DNA of 64,000 nucleotides from Oscillospiraceae bacterium (GTDB lineage Bacteria > Bacillota > Clostridia > Oscillospirales > Acutalibacteraceae). The notes below the pieces were generated by a model. The model had not been told where the DNA came from. It saw only the letters and a list, made by a program, of their open reading frames with translations, and ran no database searches. Of the stretch, positions 21,900 through 57,744 are shown piece after piece (positions within the stretch are counted from its first letter, which is position 1; each line of letters begins with the position of its first letter). The stretch lies in NCBI GenBank assembly GCA_029098185.1, contig JAQXNV010000017.1, forward strand, positions 66-64,065. Reading direction: 5' to 3'. The position numbers and the translations under genes are program-made.

Positions 21900-22000
21900 A
21901 ACAAAAATTTCCATCAGTTTTTGCTTTCCCTGGAAAAAGGAATGTGTTACAATGGAACTAGTTTCCATTGGAATTGTTCAAAAAAAGGGGGGCATCATCG

Positions 22001-23293
22001 TTGAATTTGTTGAAAGCGGTGAATATTTCCATCGAGCTGTGCGGCATCTCCTTGTGCATCATGGGGATCATAGCGGTGCTGATCGGCACAAAGATCGAGA
22101 AAAAAGACAGCCGTTATTTTATCTGTCTGTTTCTCTGTCTGCTCATTGATCTGCTGTCTAATATGAGCGGTCAAATTTTTCGAGGTGCTGCGGGAACAGT
22201 TGGATTTTATGCGGTGCGGATCTCCAATTTCTCAGAATTTTTCTTTGGCTATCTGCTGACCTTCTGCGTGACCTGGTATCTGCTTTATTGCATCGACCCC
22301 CAGTGGAAAAAGAAAGAACTGCGTGTCGGCATTGGCATTTTTTATGGCGGACAGCTCGGGCTCTTGGTTCTTTCCCAGTTCAACAAGATGTATTATTACA
22401 TAGACAGCAGCAACGTGTACCATCGGGGCGAGCTGTTCTGGCTGTCTCAGGCTGTCAGTATCTGCTCCTTTTTGCTGGATGCTGTCCTGCTTGTTTGGGA
22501 ACGCGCGTCTCTGTCCAAAAAACAAAAGCTGGCCTTTGGCAGCTATTTGCTGCTGCCCACAGCGGCATTGATCGGGCAGCTATTTTATTACGGACTGGTA
22601 CTGACGTTGATCGCATCTATTTTGGGCGCGTTTGTCATGTTTCTGTTCATCCTCAATGACCAGGTGGAGCGCTATTGCGCCAAGGAGCGGGAAAACACCA
22701 ATATGCAGACAGCCATCATGCTCAGTCAGATCCAGCCGCATTTTCTGTATAATGTGTTGAATACGATTTACTATCTGTGCGGGAAAGACCCGAAGGAAGC
22801 CCAAAATGTCGTGGCGAATTTTTCCGATTACCTGCGGGGCAACCTGGATTCCTTAAACTGTAAGGAGCCGGTTCCCTTTGCAACGGAGCTGGAACACGTT
22901 AAGAAATACCTTTCCCTGGAGGAAGCCCGATTCCGGGAGGAATTGCAGGTGGTTTACGATATTGAGGCCACCGGGTTTATGGTGCCCACATTGACGGTGC
23001 AGCCTCTAGTTGAAAACGCCGTGCGTTACGGCCTGGGGAAAAAACCGGGCGGCGGCACGGTGCGCATTGCCACACGGGAGGAGCCGGATCGTTATGTCAT
23101 CACCATTGATGATGACGGCGTAGGCTTTGACCCGGAACATTTGGAGTTTCATGACAATCGCAGCCATATCGGTATCTCCAACGTGCGCAGCCGCCTGGCC
23201 ACCATGTGCGGCGCATCGCTGGACATTCAAAGTGAGATCGGCCGCGGAACGACCGCAGTCATTACTGTACAAAAGAAGGAGGACCGCCTGTGA
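22001..23293 (+). CDS. Sensor histidine kinase, LytS/YehU-type (polytopic N-terminal sensor plus His_kinase plus HATPase)
   Basis: QIQPHFLYNVLNTIYYL (phospho-acceptor His box of the LytS family), PLVENAVRYG and a DDDGVGF ATPase. The start is ambiguous: TTG at 22001 after GGGGGG, or TTG at 21968. Confidence 0.85.
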   Translation: MNLLKAVNISIELCGISLCIMGIIAVLIGTKIEKKDSRYFICLFLCLLIDLLSNMSGQIFRGAAGTVGFYAVRISNFSEFFFGYLLTFCVTWYLLYCIDPQWKKKELRVGIGIFYGGQLGLLVLSQFNKMYYYIDSSNVYHRGELFWLSQAVSICSFLLDAVLLVWERASLSKKQKLAFGSYLLLPTAALIGQLFYYGLVLTLIASILGAFVMFLFILNDQVERYCAKERENTNMQTAIMLSQIQPHFLYNVLNTIYYLCGKDPKEAQNVVANFSDYLRGNLDSLNCKEPVPFATELEHVKKYLSLEEARFREELQVVYDIEATGFMVPTLTVQPLVENAVRYGLGKKPGGGTVRIATREEPDRYVITIDDDGVGFDPEHLEFHDNRSHIGISNVRSRLATMCGASLDIQSEIGRGTTAVITVQKKEDRL

Positions 23294-24081
23294 ACATTCT
23301 GGCAGTCGACGACGAAAAACTGGCGCTGGAGAATATGATGGAGGCCATCCGGGAAGTTGCGCCCAGGGCAACACTGGCAGGAGCCCGAGACGGGGAGCAG
23401 GCCTTGGCGCTTGCGGAAAAGACCCGGTTCGATCTTGCGTTTCTGGATATTGAAATGCGAGGGATCTCCGGACTGGAGCTGGCCAAGCGGCTAAAAGAGC
23501 GGAACCGGCGGGTCAATGTGATCTTTGCCACCGGCCACGATCAATATCCGCTGGATGCGTTTTCTCTGGCGGCCAGCGACTATCTCCTCAAGCCCATCAC
23601 ACCGGAAAAGGTGCGCCGTGCCATGGGAAACCTGCGGTTTCCGCTGCGCCCCACAGGGACCAAAAAGCTGCAGATCCATTGCTTTGGCAGCTTTGAGGTG
23701 TACGCTAACGGCGAGCCCCTGCTTTTTGGCCGGGCCAAGACAAAGGAGATGCTGGCCTATCTGGTGGACCGGAAAGGCAGTACCTGTTCCATGGGGGAAC
23801 TTTTGGCCGTGCTGTGGGAGGATAAGCCCAACAGCTCGTCCCAGCAGAGCAACCTGCGCAATCTGATCTCCGATCTGAAAAATACGCTGGCCAGTGTCGA
23901 TGCAGAGGATGTGATCCTGAAAGGGCGCAACGTTATCAGCATCCGGGAAAATATGGTGGACTGCGACTATTATGATTTTCTGAAAGGCGTTCCCTATGCG
24001 GTCCATCTGTACCAGGGGGCATACATGGAACAATATTCCTGGGCCGAGGAGACGCTGGCGTCTCTGCCGCTGGTGGAATAA
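23290..24081 (+). CDS. Response regulator: receiver domain plus SARP/OmpR-type winged-helix domain (RR1)
   Basis: Receiver residues (VDDE...DIEM...ATGH..K) are followed by LQIHCFGSFEVYANGEPLLFGRAKTKEMLAYLV...NLRNLISDLKNTL, typical of SARP-type wHTH domains. The GTG start overlaps the kinase stop (GTGA). Confidence 0.85.
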   Translation: MNILAVDDEKLALENMMEAIREVAPRATLAGARDGEQALALAEKTRFDLAFLDIEMRGISGLELAKRLKERNRRVNVIFATGHDQYPLDAFSLAASDYLLKPITPEKVRRAMGNLRFPLRPTGTKKLQIHCFGSFEVYANGEPLLFGRAKTKEMLAYLVDRKGSTCSMGELLAVLWEDKPNSSSQQSNLRNLISDLKNTLASVDAEDVILKGRNVISIRENMVDCDYYDFLKGVPYAVHLYQGAYMEQYSWAEETLASLPLVE

Positions 24082-24105
24082 ACGGGAGATCCTCCTAACG
24101 AAAAA

Positions 24106-24141
24106 CCGGAAGCCTCTATTCCTGCGGCCTCCGGCTTTTTT
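24106..24141 (+). terminator. Terminator of the kinase/RR1 operon
   Basis: CCGGAAGCC...GGCCTCCGG stem with one mismatch, followed by CTTTTTT. Confidence 0.65.
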
Positions 24142-24280
24142 GCTTGTCTGACGCTGCTCAAGAAATTGCCCATTTTTTGTAGGAGCGATGGAGGGGAAGG
24201 CTTTCTGTAGACGATTGGATGTCCGGCGATGATATTCCCCAAAAAGCGCATAGGTATCGGATTTTTCGGCGGTTTGCGCC

Positions 24281-24309
24281 TTGACCGGCACAGGAAAATA
24301 GATTATAAT
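24281..24309 (+). promoter_or_regulatory. Sigma-A type promoter of the partner-switch/export operon
   Basis: TTGACC (24281-86), a 17-nt spacer, then TATAAT (24304-09). Confidence 0.7.
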
Positions 24310-24366
24310 GAAAAGAAAATCAATTTGAAGTTGCGTTGGCAATGGAGAGCATTTGGAGGTTATCCC

Positions 24367-24663
24367 ATGACAATCGAAAAAAAGCAAAACGGAAACACTT
24401 TGGAGCTGAAGCTGACAGGTCGTCTGGATACGATGACGGCGCCGGAATTGGAAGCGGTTTTAAAAGAAACGATCGATGGAATGGAAAAGCTGGATCTCGA
24501 TTTCAGCGGACTGGAATATCTGTCCTCTGCAGGCCTTCGGGTATTGCTGACGGCGCAGAAGATCATGAATAAGCAGGGAGAAATGGTTATCCATAACGTC
24601 AACGACACCATCATGGAAGTGTTTGAAGTGACCGGATTTGTGGATATTTTGACCATTGCGTGA
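24367..24663 (+). CDS. STAS-domain anti-sigma-factor antagonist (SpoIIAA/RsbV-like)
   Basis: 98 aa. DFSGLEYLSSAGLRVLL contains the conserved phosphorylatable Ser context. RBS tggagg. Confidence 0.88.
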   Translation: MTIEKKQNGNTLELKLTGRLDTMTAPELEAVLKETIDGMEKLDLDFSGLEYLSSAGLRVLLTAQKIMNKQGEMVIHNVNDTIMEVFEVTGFVDILTIA

Positions 24664-24699
24664 TCCCATTTTGACAAAAGCCACGGAAGGGGTAACAGG

Positions 24700-27135
24700 G
24701 TGACGATTTTCATTTTAGCGGTCACAGCCGCCGTACCGATTCTGCTGTCTGCCGGCTTATTTTTGCTGGATAGACGAACACGGTTCGGTAAACTGCACTA
24801 CATAAAAAAGCAAATCATATACGGGCTCCTTTTTGGCGCACTGGCTGTGTGCGGCACAGAATTCGGTATCGATACCGGCGGCGCCATCATCAATGTGCGG
24901 GATGCTGCGCCCCTTTGTGCCGGCTTGTTTTTTGGGGCGCCATCGGGCGTCATTGCCGGAGTTATCGGCGGAGTGGAACGCTATTTGGCCGTTTTTTGGG
25001 GCGCGGGGGAATATACGCAGTTAGCCTGTTCCATCGCAACGGTGTTTGCCGGATGCTTTGGCGCTGCGCTGCGAAAATTCCTGTTTGACAACAAACGCGC
25101 GCCCTGGTATCACGCCATGACCATCGCGGCAGTCACAGAGATCCTGCACATGCTGCTGATCTTTTTGACCAATATGCACGACGTCAGCACAGCCTTCTCC
25201 TTTGTGCGCACCTGTGCGCTGACCATGATCCTGCTCAATACCGCATCGGTCACCGGCGCGGCGCTGGTCCTGTATTTTCTGGAGTCAGACCAGCGGCAGG
25301 ACCGTCACGGGCCGCTGCAGCTATCGCAAAAGTTTTCTATCTGGTTGATGTTCAGCGTGGTTGCGGCGTTTTTGGCGGCGACGACACTGTCCTTTGTCCT
25401 ACAGACGCAAATGTCGGAAAACAATGCCAATGAACTATTGCGGCTGAACATCGACGACGTGAAGGAGGACATCAACGACGCTTCAGACAAGAACCTGTTG
25501 ACCATTACGAGATCGGTTGCCGATGAAGTAGAATCTTTGACAAACGTCGACACACAAACGCTGGATACGCTGCGAAAAAAGTATGATATTGCCGAGATCA
25601 ATATCATCGACAAATGGGGCGTTATCCGCACGTCTACCAATCCGGACTTTATTTTCTATAATATGAACGGCGGTTCCCAGTCGTCAGAATTTTTACAACT
25701 GCTGGACGGAACGACGACAGAATTTGTGCAGGGCTACGGCCCTACGTCCTCAGACAGTAGCGTGCTGCGGAAATATGGCGCCGTTACCTTAAAGGATGGC
25801 GGATTTGTCCAGGTGGCCTACGATGCCAAGCGATTCCAAAAGGACATCGACGGCCAGGTCATCGGCATCACGAGAAACCGCCATGTGGGCGAGGGCGGAT
25901 TCATCCTCATCGCCAACGAATCGGGAGAGATCGTCAGTGACCGGAACCAGAACGAGGGCACTAGTCTGGAGACAGCCGGCATTCAGATCAAGGAAAACGC
26001 CATCCAGCAAGAGCAGCGGTTTGAAGCGGAGGTTTATGGGGAAAAGAGCTATTGTATGTATGTAAAGTCGGAGGGCTATTACATCATCTCGGTCCTGCCG
26101 CGGCAGGAGGCTGTTTTCTCCAGAGATGTTTCCTCTTATATTACGCTGTTTATGGAGATCGTCGTCTTTGGTCTGCTGTTCATGCTGGTATTCCTGCTCA
26201 TCAAGCATCTGATCCTGGACAATCTTCGCAAGGTGAACCATTCCCTGTCGGAGATCACCAACGGCAATTTGGATATTGTGGTAGATGTCCGCAGTAACCA
26301 GGAATTTGCAAAGCTGTCCGATGACATCAACGCCACGGTCACTACGCTCAAGCATTATATCGAAGCGGAGGCAGCCCGGATCGACAAGGAGCTGGAGTTT
26401 GCCAAATCCATTCAGCATTCGGCACTGCCCAGCGTGTTCCCACCTTATCCTAACCGGACAGAGTTCGACATTTACGCCACCATGGATACGGCCAAAGAGG
26501 TCGGCGGCGACTTCTATGATTTCTATCTGCTGGATCAGGACCATCTGGCGTTTCTCATTGCGGACGTTTCCGGTAAGGGCATTCCGGCGGCGCTGTTCAT
26601 GATGACGGCCAAAACGCTGATCAAGAGTCTCGCAGAGGCCGGAAACGCAGTCAACGATGTGTTTACGCTGGCCAATGAAAAGCTGTGCGAAAACAATGAA
26701 GCCGGGATGTTTGTAACGGCCTGGATGGGCATTTTGGATCTAAAGACCGGACTGGTAGAATTTGCTAACGCCGGCCACAATCCGCCGCTGATGCGAAAGA
26801 AGGGCGGCGAATTTACCTATCTGAAGAGCCGCGCCGGTTTTGTGCTGGCCGGTATGGAGGGCATCCACTACCGGAAAAACGAATTGCAACTGGAGCCGGG
26901 GGATGAGATCTATCTCTACACCGACGGCGTGACCGAAGCCACCGATCTCAACGAGGCCCTTTAGGGAGAGGAACGGCTGCAAAGCTTCCTCAATTCTATC
27001 GGGACGCCGGACGCAAAAACGCTGTGTGCAGGCGTCAAGGCAGATGTGGATCGGTTTGTGCGGACAGCGCCGCAGTTTGACGATATTACCATGGTTTCTC
27101 TGCAATATAAAGGGAACAAGGAGGAAGAAGAATGA
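24700..27135 (+). pseudogene. Membrane sensor PP2C phosphatase (5TM LytS-like N-domain, extracytoplasmic region, HAMP, SpoIIE/PP2C), interrupted by an in-frame TAG at 26962-26964
   Basis: PP2C motifs AKEVGGDFYDFY, ADVSGKGIPAALFM and YLYTDGVTEA precede the TAG. The same frame then continues GEERLQSFLN...APQFDDITMVSLQY (the family's C-terminal metal-binding Asp region). It ends in a TGA that overlaps the ATG of the next gene (ATGA at 27132-35). Confidence 0.8.
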
Positions 27136-27539
27136 AAAAGCTGACAGTAGACGCGATCAAAGAAAATATCGAAGTGGTCACCCAGTTTGTCGATGAGCAG
27201 TTGGAGGAATTCAATTGTTCCATGAAAGCGCAGATGCAGATCAATATCGCCATCGACGAGCTGTTTGGCAATATTGCCGCCTATGCGTACAATCCGGAAA
27301 TTGGACCGGCCACAGTCTGTGTTCAGGTAGTGGGGGAGCCGCTGTCGGTGGTGATCACCTTTATGGACCACGGCGTGCCTTTCGACCCGCTGCAGCAAAA
27401 ATCGCCAGACACGACCCTTTCTGCGGAGGAGCGGGAAATTGGCGGCCTGGGCATTTACATGGTCAAACAGAGCATGGACGATATTTCTTATGAATATAAA
27501 GATGGCAAAAACATTTTGACGATTCAGAAAACGATTTAA
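27132..27539 (+). CDS. RsbW/SpoIIAB-like anti-sigma-factor serine kinase (HATPase_c_2)
   Basis: 135 aa with N-box AIDELFGNIAAYAY and G-box EIGGLGIYMV. It is translationally coupled to the phosphatase frame. Confidence 0.85.
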   Translation: MKKLTVDAIKENIEVVTQFVDEQLEEFNCSMKAQMQINIAIDELFGNIAAYAYNPEIGPATVCVQVVGEPLSVVITFMDHGVPFDPLQQKSPDTTLSAEEREIGGLGIYMVKQSMDDISYEYKDGKNILTIQKTI

Positions 27540-27550
27540 GGGAGTGCGGT

Positions 27551-28024
27551 ATGGATCATAAAATTTTCAGAAAAAAGAGTCTTGAAAAGGTTTCCTCGCC
27601 AGAGCAGCTCAACGACTACGTCCGGGTGTCCAATCCCAGCGTTTGGATGATTATGGTGGGCGTAATCATCCTGCTCATCGGCGTTTGCGTGTGGGGGATC
27701 TTCGGCCGGCTGGATACCCAGATCAGCACCGTTGGCGTCTGCAAGGATGGGGTGCTGACCTGTTATGTGAAGGAGGAGAACATCTCCTCTGTAAAGGAAG
27801 GCATGACGCTGGAGGCCGACGGCCAGCAACTTAAGGTAGAGGGCATCAGCCGGGAAGCGAGCCAGGATACCAATGAGATGAGTGATTATACGCTTCATGT
27901 GGGCAACCTGCAAAAAGGAGAGTGGGTCTACCATGTGACGACGCCGGCTGACCTGGATGACGGCACTTACAACGTAAAGATCACGACAGAAAGTATTGCG
28001 CCGATGTCATTTGTGTTGAATTGA
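27551..28024 (+). CDS. Short HlyD-like membrane-fusion/secretion accessory protein (NHLM-system type)
   Basis: The N-terminus FRKKSLEKVSSPEQLNDYV plus a single TM matches the start of HlyD-type bacteriocin secretion proteins. Only about 100 aa of beta-rich periplasmic part follows, with no long coiled-coil hairpin. Confidence 0.6.
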   Translation: MDHKIFRKKSLEKVSSPEQLNDYVRVSNPSVWMIMVGVIILLIGVCVWGIFGRLDTQISTVGVCKDGVLTCYVKEENISSVKEGMTLEADGQQLKVEGISREASQDTNEMSDYTLHVGNLQKGEWVYHVTTPADLDDGTYNVKITTESIAPMSFVLN

Positions 28025-28034
28025 GGGACGCCCT

Positions 28035-30221
28035 ATGCAGAAGAAAAAGACGAAAATCAAACATCCTGTGCAGGGGGGCGTGGTGAAGGTGCCGGTCGTT
28101 ATGCAGATGGAGGCGCTGGAATGCGGCGCTGCATCGCTGGCGATGGTGATGGCCTACTATGACAAGTGGATCCCGCTGGAGCAGGTCCGTACCGACTGCG
28201 GCGTGTCGAGAGATGGTTCCAATGCGAGAAATATGCTCAAAGCTGCCAGAAGCTATGGGATGATCGCAAAGGGCTATCGGTTCGAGCCGGAAGAGCTGCG
28301 GGAAAAGGGGACGTTTCCCTGTATCATCCACTGGAACTTTAACCACTTTGTGGTGCTGGACGGGTTCCGGGGCAATAAAGCCTATCTCAATGACCCTGCC
28401 AGAGGCAACTATACGGTTTCTATGGAAACCTTTGACGAATCGTTTACCGGCATTTGCCTGATGATGGAGCCGGGGGACGATTTTGAACCGGGCGGCAAGC
28501 AGAAGAGCATCCTCAGCTTTGCCAAAAAGCGGTTGATCGGCACCGGAGCGGCAGTAGCTTTTGTGGTGCTCACCACCTGTATTTCATCGCTGATGGGCAT
28601 CATCAATCCGGCCTTCTCACGGATCTTTCTGGACCGGCTGCTCACGGGGCAAAACCCAGAATGGGTGATTCCCTTCTTCATCGCCCTAGGCGGCATGGGG
28701 ATTATCCAACTGGTGGTGGCGTGGATCCAGGCCGTGTACTCTCTGCGGATCAACGGCAAAATGTCTGTGGTGGGCAATACCAGCTTTATGTGGAAGGTCC
28801 TGCGCTTGCCCATGGAGTTTTTCTCCCAGCGCATGGCCGGTGACATCCAGCAGCGCCAGGGCACCAATGCTTCTATTGCGGAGGGACTGGTCAATACCTT
28901 TGCGCCGCTGGTGCTGGAAACCATCATGATGATCTTTTATCTGGTGGTCATGCTGCGGTATAGCTGGGTGCTGACGATGATCGGCCTGGTGGCTATCGTG
29001 GTCAACTTGATCGTTTCCAATATCATCTCCAAAAAGCGGATCAATATCACCCGTGTGCAGATGCGGGATTCCGGTAAGCTGGCCAGCGCCACCGTTGCGG
29101 GCATCGAGATGATCGAGACCATTAAGGCCAGCGGCGCCGAGAACGGTTACTTCGAAAGATGGTCCGGCTACCAGGCCAGCGTCAATACGCAGCAGGTCCG
29201 GTTTGCCCGGCTCAATCAGTATCTCGGCATGATCCCCACGTTGGTCTCGTCCCTGGCAGGCACCGCCGTGTTGATGATCGGCGTATACCTGACCATGCAG
29301 GGAGAGTTTACTGTCGGTATGATCGCCCAGTTCCAGGGCTTGCTCAGCTCCTTCACTGCCCCTGCCATGACGCTGATCAGCGCCGGACAGACGCTGCAGG
29401 AGATGCGCACCGAAATGGAACGGGTAGAGGATGTGATGGAATATCCCACAGACGTGAACTACGAAAGCGAAGAGGAAGAAAAAGACGCAGAATACAGTAA
29501 GCTGTCCGGCAATGTGGAGATGAAAAACGTCACCTTTGGCTATTCCCGCCTGGGTGAGCCGCTGATCAAAGATTTTAATCTGACGCTGAAAACCGGCAGC
29601 CGGGTGGCTTTTGTCGGCTCGTCGGGCTGCGGTAAATCGACGCTCTCTAAGCTGATCTCCGGCCTATACCAGCCCTGGAGCGGCGAGATCCTATTTGACG
29701 GCAAGCCCATCAAAGACATTGACCGCAGTGTGTTCCGGGGTTCTCTGGCCGTTGTGGATCAGGATATTATTTTGTTTGAGGATACCATCGCCAACAATAT
29801 CAAGATGTGGGATGACTCCATCGAGGACTTTGAGATGATCATGGCGGCCCGTGATGCGCAGATCCACGACGACATCATGCAGCGGGACGGCGGTTATCAG
29901 TATAAGCTGACTGAGGACGGCAAAGACTTTTCCGGCGGTCAGCGGCAGCGGATGGAGATCGCCCGGGTGCTGGCGCAGGATCCGACCATCATCATTTTGG
30001 ATGAGGCCACCAGCGCCTTGGACGCAAAGACAGAGTACGAGGTCGTCAAGGCCATCAAGGACCGGGGCATTACCTGTATCGTCGTTGCCCACCGGCTGTC
30101 CACCATTCGGGACTGTGACGAGATCATCGTACTGGATCACGGCAATGTAGTAGAGCGGGGTACCCATGACGAATTGTACGCTAAAGGCGGCGTTTACACC
30201 GAGCTGGTGTCCAATGAATAA
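28035..30221 (+). CDS. Bacteriocin-type ABC exporter with an N-terminal C39 peptidase domain (peptidase/permease/ATPase)
   Basis: C39 catalytic context QMEALECGAASLAMV, HFVVL, NDP. It has six TM helices, Walker A GSSGCGKST, signature FSGGQRQR and Walker B IIILDEATSALD. Confidence 0.92.
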   Translation: MQKKKTKIKHPVQGGVVKVPVVMQMEALECGAASLAMVMAYYDKWIPLEQVRTDCGVSRDGSNARNMLKAARSYGMIAKGYRFEPEELREKGTFPCIIHWNFNHFVVLDGFRGNKAYLNDPARGNYTVSMETFDESFTGICLMMEPGDDFEPGGKQKSILSFAKKRLIGTGAAVAFVVLTTCISSLMGIINPAFSRIFLDRLLTGQNPEWVIPFFIALGGMGIIQLVVAWIQAVYSLRINGKMSVVGNTSFMWKVLRLPMEFFSQRMAGDIQQRQGTNASIAEGLVNTFAPLVLETIMMIFYLVVMLRYSWVLTMIGLVAIVVNLIVSNIISKKRINITRVQMRDSGKLASATVAGIEMIETIKASGAENGYFERWSGYQASVNTQQVRFARLNQYLGMIPTLVSSLAGTAVLMIGVYLTMQGEFTVGMIAQFQGLLSSFTAPAMTLISAGQTLQEMRTEMERVEDVMEYPTDVNYESEEEEKDAEYSKLSGNVEMKNVTFGYSRLGEPLIKDFNLTLKTGSRVAFVGSSGCGKSTLSKLISGLYQPWSGEILFDGKPIKDIDRSVFRGSLAVVDQDIILFEDTIANNIKMWDDSIEDFEMIMAARDAQIHDDIMQRDGGYQYKLTEDGKDFSGGQRQRMEIARVLAQDPTIIILDEATSALDAKTEYEVVKAIKDRGITCIVVAHRLSTIRDCDEIIVLDHGNVVERGTHDELYAKGGVYTELVSNE

Positions 30222-30233
30222 GGAGGTGGAAAC

Positions 30234-32468
30234 ATGGGTTGGTTTGATGAACAGATAAAACAAAGAAAACAACACGACGACGATGTTTTCACAGATTCCT
30301 TTCTCAACATCGCCCGGTCTGTCGTCGGCAACAAGGCGGGCTCTCAGTTTCAGGATGACCAGAAGATTGCCAAGAGCACCTTTGACCAGATCTTAAAATA
30401 TTACCATGTCAAGACCCGGGAAGTGCCGGAGAGCATCAAAAACCGGGACGATCAATTGGAATATCTCCTGCGGCCCTACGGCATCATGCGGCGGAACGTC
30501 AATTTAGACGATGGCTGGTATAAGGACGCCATCGGCGCTATGCTGGGCGTGCGCAAAAGCGACGGGACCGTTGTGGCGCTGATCCCCTCGGGACTGTCGG
30601 GCTATAGCTACATTGACCCGGATACAGGCAAACGGATGCGGGTCAATAAGAAACGGCAAAAGCTGTTTGAAAAGGAAGCTGTGGCGTTTTATAAGCCGTT
30701 CCCGCTGAAGAAGCTGGGTATCCCGGCACTGCTAAAGTATATCGTCGAAACGCTGTCGATCTCCGACTTTGTGCTGTTGGGCATCGTAACGCTGGCCGTT
30801 ACCCTTATCGGTATGCTGACGCCAAAGCTGAACAGCCTGCTGTTTTCCGACGTCATCAATTCGGGCAGTATGCGGCTATTGATCTCCATCACCATCTTTA
30901 TGGTGTGCGTGACCATTACTCAGCTTTTGATCTCGGCGGCAAAATCTTTGGTAACGGCCCGGATCAATACGAAGATGAGTATTTCCGTTGAGGGCGCAAC
31001 GATGATGCGGGTGCTGTCGCTGCCGGCGGATTTCTTTAAACAGTACAGCGCCGGTGAATTGTCCTCCCGTGCCTCCAGCATCAATACGCTGTGTAATATG
31101 CTGGTGTCCACCATTTTATCCTCCGGCCTGAGCTCTCTGTTTTCTCTGCTGTATATTACGCAGATCTTCGCTTACGCACCATCATTGGTCATCCCAGCGC
31201 TGGTGATCATCGGGATCACATTGGCCTTTTCTCTGGCATCCACGCTGATGCAGATGAAGATCAGTAAGCGCCAGATGGAGCTGTCCTCTAAGGAGAGCGG
31301 CATGACGTATGCGCTGCTCACCGGTATCCAGAAAATCAAGCTGGCCGGCGCGGAAAAACGTGCTTTTGCCCGCTGGGGCAACCTGTACGCCAAGGAGGCG
31401 GAGCTATCCTATCGTCCGCCGGTTTTCCTGCGGATCAACAGCGTGATCTCCACCGGTATTTCTTTGGCCGGCAGCTTTGTCATGTACTTTATGGCCGTTC
31501 AGTCGGGGATCTCCATTGCCGACTACTACGCCTTTAACGCCGCTTACGGCATGGTGTCGGGCGCGTTTTTGTCGGTGCAGTCCATTGCACTGACCGTGGC
31601 CCGCATCAAACCGGTTTTGGAGATGGTGAAGCCGCTGCTGGAAACGGTCCCGGAAATCTCCGAGGGCAAGCAGGTGATCACACGGCTCAGCGGCGGCATC
31701 GAGCTGAACAATATCTCCTTCCGCTACCAGGAAAATATGCCGCTGGTCATCGACGATCTTTCGCTGAAGATCCGGCCTGGCCAATATGTGGCCATCGTCG
31801 GTGCAACGGGCTGCGGCAAGTCCACGCTGATGCGTTTGATGCTGGGTTTTGAAAAGCCCCAAAAGGGCGCCATCTTTTACGATGGAAAGGACCTGAGCAA
31901 TATCGACCTTAAATCTCTGCGGAAAAATATCGGCACCGTGATGCAAAACGGCAAGCTGTTCCAGGGCGACATCTATTCCAATATCGTCATTTCTGCGCCG
32001 CGCCTTACGATGGACGAAGCGTGGGAGGCGGCGGAGCTGGCCGGCATTGCCGAGGATATTCGCCAGATGCCCATGGAGATGCACACCGTGATCTCTGAGG
32101 GGCAGGGCGGTATTTCCGGCGGTCAGCGGCAGCGCTTGATGATCGCCCGTGCCGTGGCGCCAAAGCCGAAGATCCTGATGTTTGACGAGGCCACCAGCGC
32201 CCTGGATAACCTGACCCAGAAGAAGATCTCCGAATCGCTGGCCAATCTCAAATGCACACGGATCGTCATTGCCCACCGGTTGTCCACCATCCAGCAGTGT
32301 GACCGGATCATCGTGCTGGATAAGGGCAAGATCATTGAGGACGGCAAGTATGATGAGCTGATCGCCCAGAATGGATTCTTTGCGGAATTGGTCGCAAGAC
32401 AACGGCTGGATCTGGGCCAGGAAGCGGTGACAGAAGCGCCAAAGCAGGCGGCAAAAGCGACTTGTTGA
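30234..32468 (+). CDS. Second ABC exporter subunit with a degenerate, Cys-free C39-like N-domain (permease/ATPase)
   Basis: Walker A GATGCGKST, signature ISGGQRQR and Walker B ILMFDEATSALD. The first 165 aa or so contain no Cys, and TVVALIP replaces HFVVL. Confidence 0.9.
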   Translation: MGWFDEQIKQRKQHDDDVFTDSFLNIARSVVGNKAGSQFQDDQKIAKSTFDQILKYYHVKTREVPESIKNRDDQLEYLLRPYGIMRRNVNLDDGWYKDAIGAMLGVRKSDGTVVALIPSGLSGYSYIDPDTGKRMRVNKKRQKLFEKEAVAFYKPFPLKKLGIPALLKYIVETLSISDFVLLGIVTLAVTLIGMLTPKLNSLLFSDVINSGSMRLLISITIFMVCVTITQLLISAAKSLVTARINTKMSISVEGATMMRVLSLPADFFKQYSAGELSSRASSINTLCNMLVSTILSSGLSSLFSLLYITQIFAYAPSLVIPALVIIGITLAFSLASTLMQMKISKRQMELSSKESGMTYALLTGIQKIKLAGAEKRAFARWGNLYAKEAELSYRPPVFLRINSVISTGISLAGSFVMYFMAVQSGISIADYYAFNAAYGMVSGAFLSVQSIALTVARIKPVLEMVKPLLETVPEISEGKQVITRLSGGIELNNISFRYQENMPLVIDDLSLKIRPGQYVAIVGATGCGKSTLMRLMLGFEKPQKGAIFYDGKDLSNIDLKSLRKNIGTVMQNGKLFQGDIYSNIVISAPRLTMDEAWEAAELAGIAEDIRQMPMEMHTVISEGQGGISGGQRQRLMIARAVAPKPKILMFDEATSALDNLTQKKISESLANLKCTRIVIAHRLSTIQQCDRIIVLDKGKIIEDGKYDELIAQNGFFAELVARQRLDLGQEAVTEAPKQAAKATC

Positions 32469-44021: not shown

Positions 44022-45605
44022 ATGAAAGGAAGTAAAAAAGTATTGTCTGTCGGTATGGGGGTCATCCTTGCGGCAAGCATAACCAGTGTGTTAGCGGGAT
44101 GCGGGGAAACTGCTGCTCCGGCGGCAACACAGAGTGCCAGCACAGATCAGTCTGCAACGTAAAAGGTCATCAATTACGGCATCAGCTATCACAGTGAAGA
44201 AGGCGTTGATCCGCAGGTTGGTTACACGGGATGGTACACGGTTCGATTTGGCATCGGTGAGACGTTGGTGAAAATTTCCGACACAGGTACACTGGAGCCA
44301 TGGCTGGCCGAAAGCTGGAAGATGGACGGCAATACCTGGACGATCCAGCTAAAAGACGGGATCAAGTTTTCTAACGGCAAACCAGTTGATGCCGCTGCGG
44401 TAAAGGCTTGCTTTGAGCGTCTCTTGTCCCAGCATGAAAGAGCAAAAGGGGATCTGAATATCCAGTCCATGTCGGCCGATGGCCTGACGCTGACCATCAA
44501 AACAAAGGGTGAGAACATCACGCTGATGAATGATCTTTGCGACCCATATGCGTCCATCATCGACGTATCAGAAAAGATCGATACCAATACTTCCGTAGTG
44601 GGCACTGGTCCATATAAATTGATCGAGAGCAACCTGGAAGGCGTTTATGTTGAGAAGAATGAAAACTACTGGAATGGAGAAGCAAAGGTCGACAAGATCA
44701 ACTTTATTTCCTTCTCCGATCCCGACACCCTTGGCATGGCGCTGCAAAATGGAGATCTCGATGCGGCGTACGGCCTTACGGGAACCGATTATGTAGACCT
44801 GATCCAAAAAACAGACGGCTACAAGATCAGCCAGGTGCCAACATCTACAAGAAATATCGGTGTTTTTTATAATACTGCCAGCGGTTTTATGCAGGATGCA
44901 GCAGTCCGTCGCGCAATCTCCATGTGTTTTGATAAGGAGAGCTTCTGCGAGATGATCATGAGCGGTGACGCGGAAGTGGCAACCTCTGCGTTCCCCTCTA
45001 CCTTCCCTTATGGCGATGGCAAGGTGAGCGATGTTTCCTTTGACATTGACGGAGCGAAAAAGGTGCTTTCTGAGGCTGGTTATGTGGATACAGACGGAGA
45101 CGGCTATGTGGATAAAGACGGAAAGAATGTCACGATCAAATGGGTCACCTACGGATCAGAAGATTCCCTGCCAAAGCTTGCAGAAGTTACACAGGCAAAC
45201 CTGAAACAGGTTGGGATCAAGGCAGACATTGAAGTGGTGGATAGCCTTGCGCCACGGCTGCAGGAAGGAAAATTCGATCTGTTTGGCATGGTTTACACCT
45301 CTACCGCTACCGGCGATCCCCAATACTACTTCACTAACTTTTTTGAAAAGGGCGGCGGATATTCTTACACCAACTTTGAGGATAAGGAATTTAGTCAGCT
45401 CTTAGAGGAATTAAAGCAGGAAACCGATACCGAAAAGCGTGGGGAATTGTCTGTAAAGCTGGAACAGATCCTTCTGGACAAAAATGTCTGCACACAGATC
45501 GGACATAAAAAATCTGTAACGCTGATGAAGGCAGGCGTTACAGGCATGGATGCCAGTATGTCAGACTTCTACATCACCACAGTGGATACAGACATCAATC
45601 AATAA
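44022..45605 (+). pseudogene. ABC transporter substrate-binding lipoprotein (family 5, peptide/nickel type), interrupted by an in-frame TAA at 44160-44162
   Basis: A lipoprotein signal (MKGSKKVLSVGMGVILAASITSVLAGC) runs in frame into TAA. The same frame then continues KVINYGISYHSEEG...WYTVRFGIGETLVKI... through a complete SBP_bac_5-like domain. No permease or ATPase genes are adjacent. Confidence 0.8.
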
Positions 45606-56892: not shown

Positions 56893-57744
56893 ATGACATC
56901 CACACCACTGTGCAACATGACGCTCCGAACCGAAAAGGACGTTTCTTATCTCACCTTTCCCTGCTATGACGAGCTGCCCTTTGTGCGCCACAGCTTTTCC
57001 ACAAAGCTGGGGGGCGTCAGCGAGGGCGTATTTGCCACCATGAACCTCAGCTTTCACCGGGGCGACCCGGAGGAGAAGGTGCTGGAAAATTACCACCGCA
57101 TCTGCGACGCGGTAGGCTATGATTTTGAAAAGCTGGTGGCCTCGGCCCAGGATCACCATACGGTGGTGCGCCGGGTCACGTCTGCCCAGGCAGGCATTGG
57201 CATCTGGAAGGAGCGGGATCTGCAAAGCGTAGATGGCCTCATCACCAATGTGCCCGGCGTCGTGCTGGTGACGTATTACGCCGACTGCACGCCCCTTTAT
57301 TTTGTAGACCCGGTAAAAAAAGCCATCGGCCTATCCCATGCGGGCTGGCGGGGCACTGTGGCGGAGATGGGCAAGCATACCGTCAAAGCCATGACAGAGG
57401 CATTTGGCACCGATCCAAAGGATTTGATCGCCGCCATCGGTCCATCGATCGGCCAGTGCTGCTATGAGGTGGACGGCCCGGTCATCGAGGCGGTGCGAAA
57501 GCTTACTTATGTGCCGGAAGCAGCAGTGCTGCAGCCCAAAGCCAACGGTCGCTGTCAGCTTGACCTGTGGGAGCTCAACCGGCGTATCCTGCTGGAATCC
57601 GGCATCCCCGCAGAGCAGATCCATGTGGGCGGGGTGTGTACCCGGTGCCACAGCGATCTGCTCTACTCCCACCGTGTCATGGGGGCGCAGCGGGGCGGCA
57701 TGGCCGCTATGCTGTCCATCCGGGAACCGGGGGAGCCATCATGA
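56893..57744 (+). CDS. pgeF: Peptidoglycan editing factor PgeF (YfiH/DUF152 laccase-domain protein)
   Basis: HSFSTKLGGVS, DCTPLYF, SHAGWRGT and CTRCHSDLLYSHR. Confidence 0.88.
   Translation: MTSTPLCNMTLRTEKDVSYLTFPCYDELPFVRHSFSTKLGGVSEGVFATMNLSFHRGDPEEKVLENYHRICDAVGYDFEKLVASAQDHHTVVRRVTSAQAGIGIWKERDLQSVDGLITNVPGVVLVTYYADCTPLYFVDPVKKAIGLSHAGWRGTVAEMGKHTVKAMTEAFGTDPKDLIAAIGPSIGQCCYEVDGPVIEAVRKLTYVPEAAVLQPKANGRCQLDLWELNRRILLESGIPAEQIHVGGVCTRCHSDLLYSHRVMGAQRGGMAAMLSIREPGEPS

Follow-up and report, generated by a model that had tools for sequence, protein, structure and literature searches.

Three adjacent genes in the window (the whole stretch of 64,000 nucleotides that was analysed) encode a STAS-domain protein, a PP2C phosphatase and an RsbW-like kinase and, based on their domain content, the trio is a partner-switching operon (Table 1). 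A LytS-type histidine kinase and a response regulator precede the trio and two ABC exporters follow it, the first of which has a peptidase-C39 domain (21968-32468). Eight neighbouring proteins from this interval were scanned and none matched a sigma-factor family. A separate GGAGG precedes the ATG of the kinase gene by 7 nt, and the exact kinase protein is also encoded in a Logan contig (L013) from another sample. Many close homologues of the phosphatase (P0007, P0048, P0111 and others; 943-949 aa) are fusions of PP2C with the RsbW-like kinase, with one cluster containing 376 sequences; in the window, unlike in these fused homologues, the phosphatase and kinase genes merely overlap by ATGA.

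Table 1 Features of the phosphatase locus, assembly-private differences and other in-frame stops. Positions without a prefix are those of the window.
Feature	Position	Strand	Description
STAS-domain protein, RsbV/SpoIIAA-like antagonist	24229..24663	+	Pfam STAS 55 bits, STAS_2 51 bits; start codon uncertain
Phosphatase, first 754 codons	24700..26961	+	5TMR-LYT; middle part without a Pfam match; weak HAMP; most of SpoIIE/PP2C
Second assembly-private difference	26949		15 nt upstream of the TAG; synonymous, CTC in the window and CTA in the others
In-frame TAG at the invariant Tyr755 codon	26962..26964	+	Private to the assembly
Last 56 codons of PP2C and natural TGA	26965..27135	+	Contains FDDITM with the metal-ligand Asp794
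RsbW/SpoIIAB-like serine kinase, 135 aa	27132..27539	+	Pfam HATPase_c_2 70.6 bits
Family-5 ABC substrate-binding lipoprotein, TAA	44160..44162	+	Stop between the signal peptide/linker and the mature domain
Third assembly-private difference	57063		A in SRR21376880 and ERR13801178, C in the window; synonymous, GGA and GGC
mutS	C31:9305 (L023)		TAG in MutS_V (domain V), just before FATHYHELT; inferred TTG>TAG (Leu)
trpB	C47:18909 (L035)		TAA in the PALP domain; inferred TAC>TAA
HD/HD_assoc dGTPase-like gene	C26:8878		TAA between the two domains; inferred AAA>TAA (Lys)

The phosphatase gene is interrupted by a TAG (26962-26964), which is in frame with the GTG at 24700, is real in the deposited sequence and lies in the context ...GAG GCC CTT TAG GGA GAG GAA.... 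The upstream ORF (24700-26964), where the ORF list ends the gene, encodes a product of 754 aa that is also the public gene call (P0002) on the 65,255-bp contig. Past the TAG the same frame continues as GEERLQSFLNSIGTPDAKTLCAGVKADVDRFVRTAPQFDDITMVSLQYKGNKEEEE for 56 codons and stops at a TGA (27133-27135) that overlaps the kinase ATG (27132-27134), giving ATGA at 27132-27135. The in-frame TAG, the 56-codon continuation and the ATGA overlap were all noted in a preliminary description of the locus and are all seen in the sequence.

When read through the TAG, the whole frame has 811 codons and encodes a 5TMR-LYT sensor, a HAMP and a SpoIIE/PP2C domain. The read-through product matches the Pfam models for 5TMR-LYT (96 bits), HAMP (20 bits, which is below the cut-off) and SpoIIE (PF07228; 165.4 bits, cut-off 25). 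The SpoIIE match runs from residue 613 to 803, corresponding to model positions 2-191 of 192, and as this single continuous match spans the TAG, the open frame beyond the stop is not a chance occurrence. The 754-aa form is represented in a collection of 5.8 billion sequences only by the window's own protein. No record was retrieved when the 754-aa product, the 811-aa Tyr form or full-length TrpB was looked up by exact sequence, and the cluster look-ups gave nearly all singletons.

The TAG falls on the codon for residue 755, which is Tyr in 119/119 of the closest database homologues. The residues that are invariant downstream of this position in the 119 homologues (R759, C776, D782, F786, Q792, D794, D795, T797 and M798) are kept in the window. 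Two full-length orthologues in related genomes (60% and 57% identity; L002 and L003) have no stop and the codon is TAC, and a stop at the TAG site is absent from every relative with a match. A profile alignment to the SpoIIE structure (5mqh_A) places D622, D742 and D794 of the phosphatase at D628, D746 and D795 of SpoIIE, respectively, which are metal-coordinating residues (PMC5468089). Since D794 is downstream of the TAG, the 754-aa product would be without one metal ligand and the C-terminal strands, in keeping with the earlier suggestion that truncation costs the phosphatase a metal-binding Asp.

On another explanation, the TAG would be a genuine nonsense mutation of very recent origin, confined to the strain that the MAG represents, and would leave the phosphatase inactive. 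This explanation is unlikely, although it has several points in its favour. The stop stands in the public record and is annotated as such (P0002), the undecayed frame downstream would fit a very young mutation equally well, and the equivalence of D794 to the SpoIIE metal ligand D795 (PMC5468089) means that truncation would inactivate the enzyme. The 754-aa product would be without the last two beta-strands in addition to Asp794, the kinase would keep the STAS protein phosphorylated and the switch would be locked in a kinase-dominant state. The kinase gene would lose its coupling to the phosphatase gene and would still be translated from its own GGAGG.

A search of a sequencing-run index identified pig-gut metagenome runs that hold the stretch, and the Logan contigs from these runs were compared with the window. 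Position 26964 is T in all six runs that cover the site (X1-X5 and X7, from two studies) and none reads G, so that the TAG allele (0/6 other runs) is private to this one MAG. In one of the Logan contigs (L013, from ERR13801246), the gene is called straight through the site, the codon is TAT and the sequence reads CTTTATGGA. A scan of JGI metagenome contigs for either allele gave no match. Position 26949 is A in runs X1-X5 and in L013, compared with C in the window, and the window combination CTC ... TAG was found in no run, the others having CTA ... TAT. Run X2 differs from the window only at 26949 and 26964 in 1101 nt.

These comparisons confirm that the original codon was TAY, as had been proposed: it is TAT in the same-strain contigs from six runs, TAC in the two orthologues and Tyr in 119/119 homologues. 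They also show a sense codon in related genomes, which had been named beforehand as the finding that would speak against a real or programmed stop. The earlier view of the interruption as 'evolutionarily very recent or not real' is borne out by the private TAG, the TAT elsewhere and the undecayed downstream frame. The absence of the allele from six other runs, one of which is identical at 1099 other positions, argues against a real nonsense mutation; the linked synonymous change 15 nt away could, however, mark a distinct haplotype. Elsewhere in the phosphatase gene, three strain polymorphisms (26787, 26791 and 26804) are clustered within 18 nt and are a synonymous change at Pro, Met>Val and Gly>Asp. 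The alleles of X1, X3 and X4 (Val and Asp) match the family consensus PPLVR.KDG, while the window and X2 have the rarer Met and Gly.

The full-length protein would also be made if the TAG were decoded in a programmed manner, whether by pyrrolysine, a suppressor tRNA or context-driven read-through, and in favour of this the frame stays open past the TAG with complete conservation. A tRNA with the anticodon CUA was not found among 42 tRNAs (0/42; ARAGORN), although the genome is 90.7% complete and the absence is thus not absolute. The best match to PylS (TIGR02367) scored 28.3 bits against a cut-off of 178. TAG ends 114/1009 ORFs of at least 300 codons. The lack of tRNA-CUA and PylS, the use of TAG as a common terminator and the absence of the stop in 119 homologues, six conspecific runs and two orthologues all count against recoding, which is effectively refuted and is excluded for practical purposes. 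The option of programmed read-through raised in the preliminary description is therefore not sustained, as suppressor and Pyl machinery were not found and the stop is unconserved.

The 'phase-like OFF state' considered earlier, in which phase variation would reversibly switch off the partner-switching module, is no more credible. The one point in its favour is that the stop lies in a regulatory gene. The change is a single-base transversion, neither a simple-sequence repeat nor an invertible element that could reverse it is visible in the sequence around the TAG, and the OFF allele occurs in one assembly only, with 6/6 other runs reading ON. This possibility is regarded as extremely improbable.

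The substitutions that set the window apart from the other samples were compared with ordinary strain variation. For this, 12,256 window bases were aligned with nine Logan contigs from three samples, which were fetched by exact-protein look-ups. The ordinary polymorphisms in these bases number 10, each found in one sample and all transitions, and a further 3 kb on another contig gave 16 transitions and 1 transversion. Only three sites (26949, 26964 and 57063) are private to the window relative to every covering sample. Each is an A:T>C:G transversion in the third position of a codon, and two are synonymous. Transversions thus account for 3/3 private changes and 1/27 ordinary SNPs (26 transitions to 1), a difference with an exact p of ~0.001 in a small sample. 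Ordinary young mutations are expected to resemble the population SNPs, that is, to be transitions, so that the private transversions fit an error better; the lack of any private transition, set against the 26:1 ratio of the natural SNPs, likewise counts against a real nonsense allele. The rate of private differences is near 2e-4 per base, a figure that rests on three events, and predicts roughly the number of in-frame stops observed in the genome.

The sequence context of the private sites is suggestive of miscalls but does not prove them. A>C and T>G are favoured Illumina miscalls, and such errors are concentrated near inverted repeats and in the 10 nt that follow a GGC (PMC3141275). On the strand that shows the change as T>G, a GGC precedes both 26964 and 26949 by 7 nt. 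Position 57063 is in the loop formed by an inverted repeat (CCGGG/CCCGG), and the GGC context is thus limited to two of the three private sites. The sites at 26949 and 26964 are also mirror-symmetric about the palindrome GGCC (26955-26958) and are mutually complementary in both alleles (A/T in the others and C/G in the window). This symmetry may reflect strand-symmetric miscalls in a GGC context, although two such errors, one on each strand, would not fall in a common k-mer. Template switching at a quasi-palindrome and a compensatory hairpin pair were also considered and were rejected, as pairing in the flanks is poor and both arms would need to change.

The genome bin that holds the window (1.63 Mb in 67 contigs, 90.7% complete) was scanned in full for other interrupted genes using a 3-periodic 4th-order Markov model, followed by Pfam checks. 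The scan recovered the PP2C site, detected the stops in mutS, trpB and the dGTPase-like gene and missed the stop in the substrate-binding protein gene, and its sensitivity is thus low; an earlier codon log-odds search for read-through candidates was too noisy, as antisense frames scored nearly as high. At least four conserved genes have further in-frame stops, namely mutS, trpB, a dGTPase-like gene and the gene for a substrate-binding lipoprotein (Table 1). A stop at the mutS site was found in 0/15 related genomes with a match and at the trpB site in 0/12, and the position of the trpB stop is Tyr in 111/120 homologues. The substrate-binding gene (44022-45605) has uninterrupted homologues of 517-541 aa, and the public call is 445 aa without the signal peptide. 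One further candidate (C43:47667) proved to be a natural stop, since the DUF3006 domain ends before it.

The original codons were inferred from the codons of the closest relatives. Including the PP2C site, there are four stops for which the original codon could be determined and the changes are T>G, T>A, C>A and A>T, all transversions. The five transition routes to a stop (from CAA, CAG, CGA and TGG) were used by none of the four. Since 18/23 single-base routes to a stop are transversions, the nonsense set alone is weak evidence for the spectrum.

The presence of stops in other conserved genes, including mutS, could mean that the lineage is accumulating loss-of-function alleles, which would favour a real nonsense mutation in the phosphatase gene. 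If the mutS stop is real the strain would be without mismatch repair; were the stops in general real, the genome would exemplify a mutator lineage in the wild. Loss of mismatch repair in mutS mutators gives almost only transitions. A MutS-null hypermutator was accordingly rejected as the single cause, as all of the determined changes (T>G, T>A, C>A and A>T at the four stops) are transversions, and the same mismatch weakens the case for a real stop in the phosphatase gene. It is also conceivable, though improbable, that the stops are real and belong to a natural pig-gut lineage in which a transversion-rich mutator phenotype is combined with a mutS nonsense allele. Such a lineage would be shedding genes by nonsense mutation, including the gene for the sensor phosphatase, whose partner-switching module would be sigma-less and lies beside a peptide exporter, and the STAS protein would be locked in its phosphorylated form.

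The best explanation for the TAG, with a probability of roughly two in three, is a base-call or consensus error in a low-coverage MAG. A technical cause rather than a real mutation is most likely given the substitution spectrum, the clustering and privacy of the changes and the sequencing depth. The TAG is private, the Tyr is invariant and the downstream frame is undecayed, and the private spectrum consists of transversions only and is rich in A>C/T>G; each of these points to an error. The two private differences that are 15 nt apart in a sequence otherwise identical to that of X2 fit one poor read. The k-mer depth of the species was ~4-7 in every run in which it was found and this, together with 67 contigs for 1.63 Mb, is consistent with a low-coverage bin.

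Some considerations weigh against an error. Singleton errors are normally discarded by a de Bruijn assembler, ~2e-4 per base is a high rate for a consensus built from Illumina reads, and it is normal for a real bacterial genome to contain a few pseudogenes with internal stops.

If the TAG is an error, the third base of the invariant Tyr755 codon would have changed from T to G (TAT to TAG) through a miscall carried into the MAG, and the same scatter of private transversions would have produced false stops in the mutS, trpB, dGTPase-like and substrate-binding protein genes. The organism would then make the full 811-aa phosphatase, an ordinary and intact-looking membrane sensor enzyme that would dephosphorylate the phospho-STAS protein, and the ATGA overlap would couple translation of the kinase gene to that of the phosphatase gene. 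The gene is thus best read as that of an intact 811-aa PP2C phosphatase, which removes a candidate signal for recoding or phase variation. The public annotation of the MAG is misleading at the phosphatase (754 aa) and the substrate-binding protein (445 aa), and probably also at mutS, trpB and the dGTPase-like gene. Comparison of the assembly-private substitution spectrum with that of ordinary strain SNPs provides a reusable test, which flags bins whose internal stops are best not given a biological interpretation.

The predicted operon resembles the modules of the SpoIIE/RsbU-type PP2C phosphatases (SpoIIE-SpoIIAA-SpoIIAB and RsbU-RsbV-RsbW in B. subtilis). Like these, it has a SpoIIE-family domain with conserved metal ligands, with a STAS gene on one side and a HATPase_c_2 kinase gene on the other, and the start of the kinase gene overlaps the phosphatase stop. 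It differs in that the sensor is a 5TMR-LYT membrane domain with a weak HAMP-like match instead of the SpoIIE or RsbU regulatory domains, and in that the operon continues into peptidase-C39 ABC exporters with no sigma-factor match among the eight neighbours.

An in-frame UAG in a conserved gene is also a feature of pyrrolysine decoding in Firmicutes such as Desulfitobacterium and Acetohalobium. The window differs from that system, as neither pylS nor tRNA-CUA was found, the position is an invariant Tyr and not Pyl or Lys, and the stop is shared by no relative. The closer parallel is with the internal-stop 'pseudogenes' that arise in MAGs from miscalls or minority alleles (PMC3141275). In the present case the evidence comes from assembled contigs and the GGC/inverted-repeat context is found at two of the three sites only. 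The likeness to such pseudogenes lies in a single-base stop confined to one assembly, where near-identical assemblies have a sense codon, an undecayed downstream frame, a private spectrum of transversions only and the occurrence of several stops in one bin.
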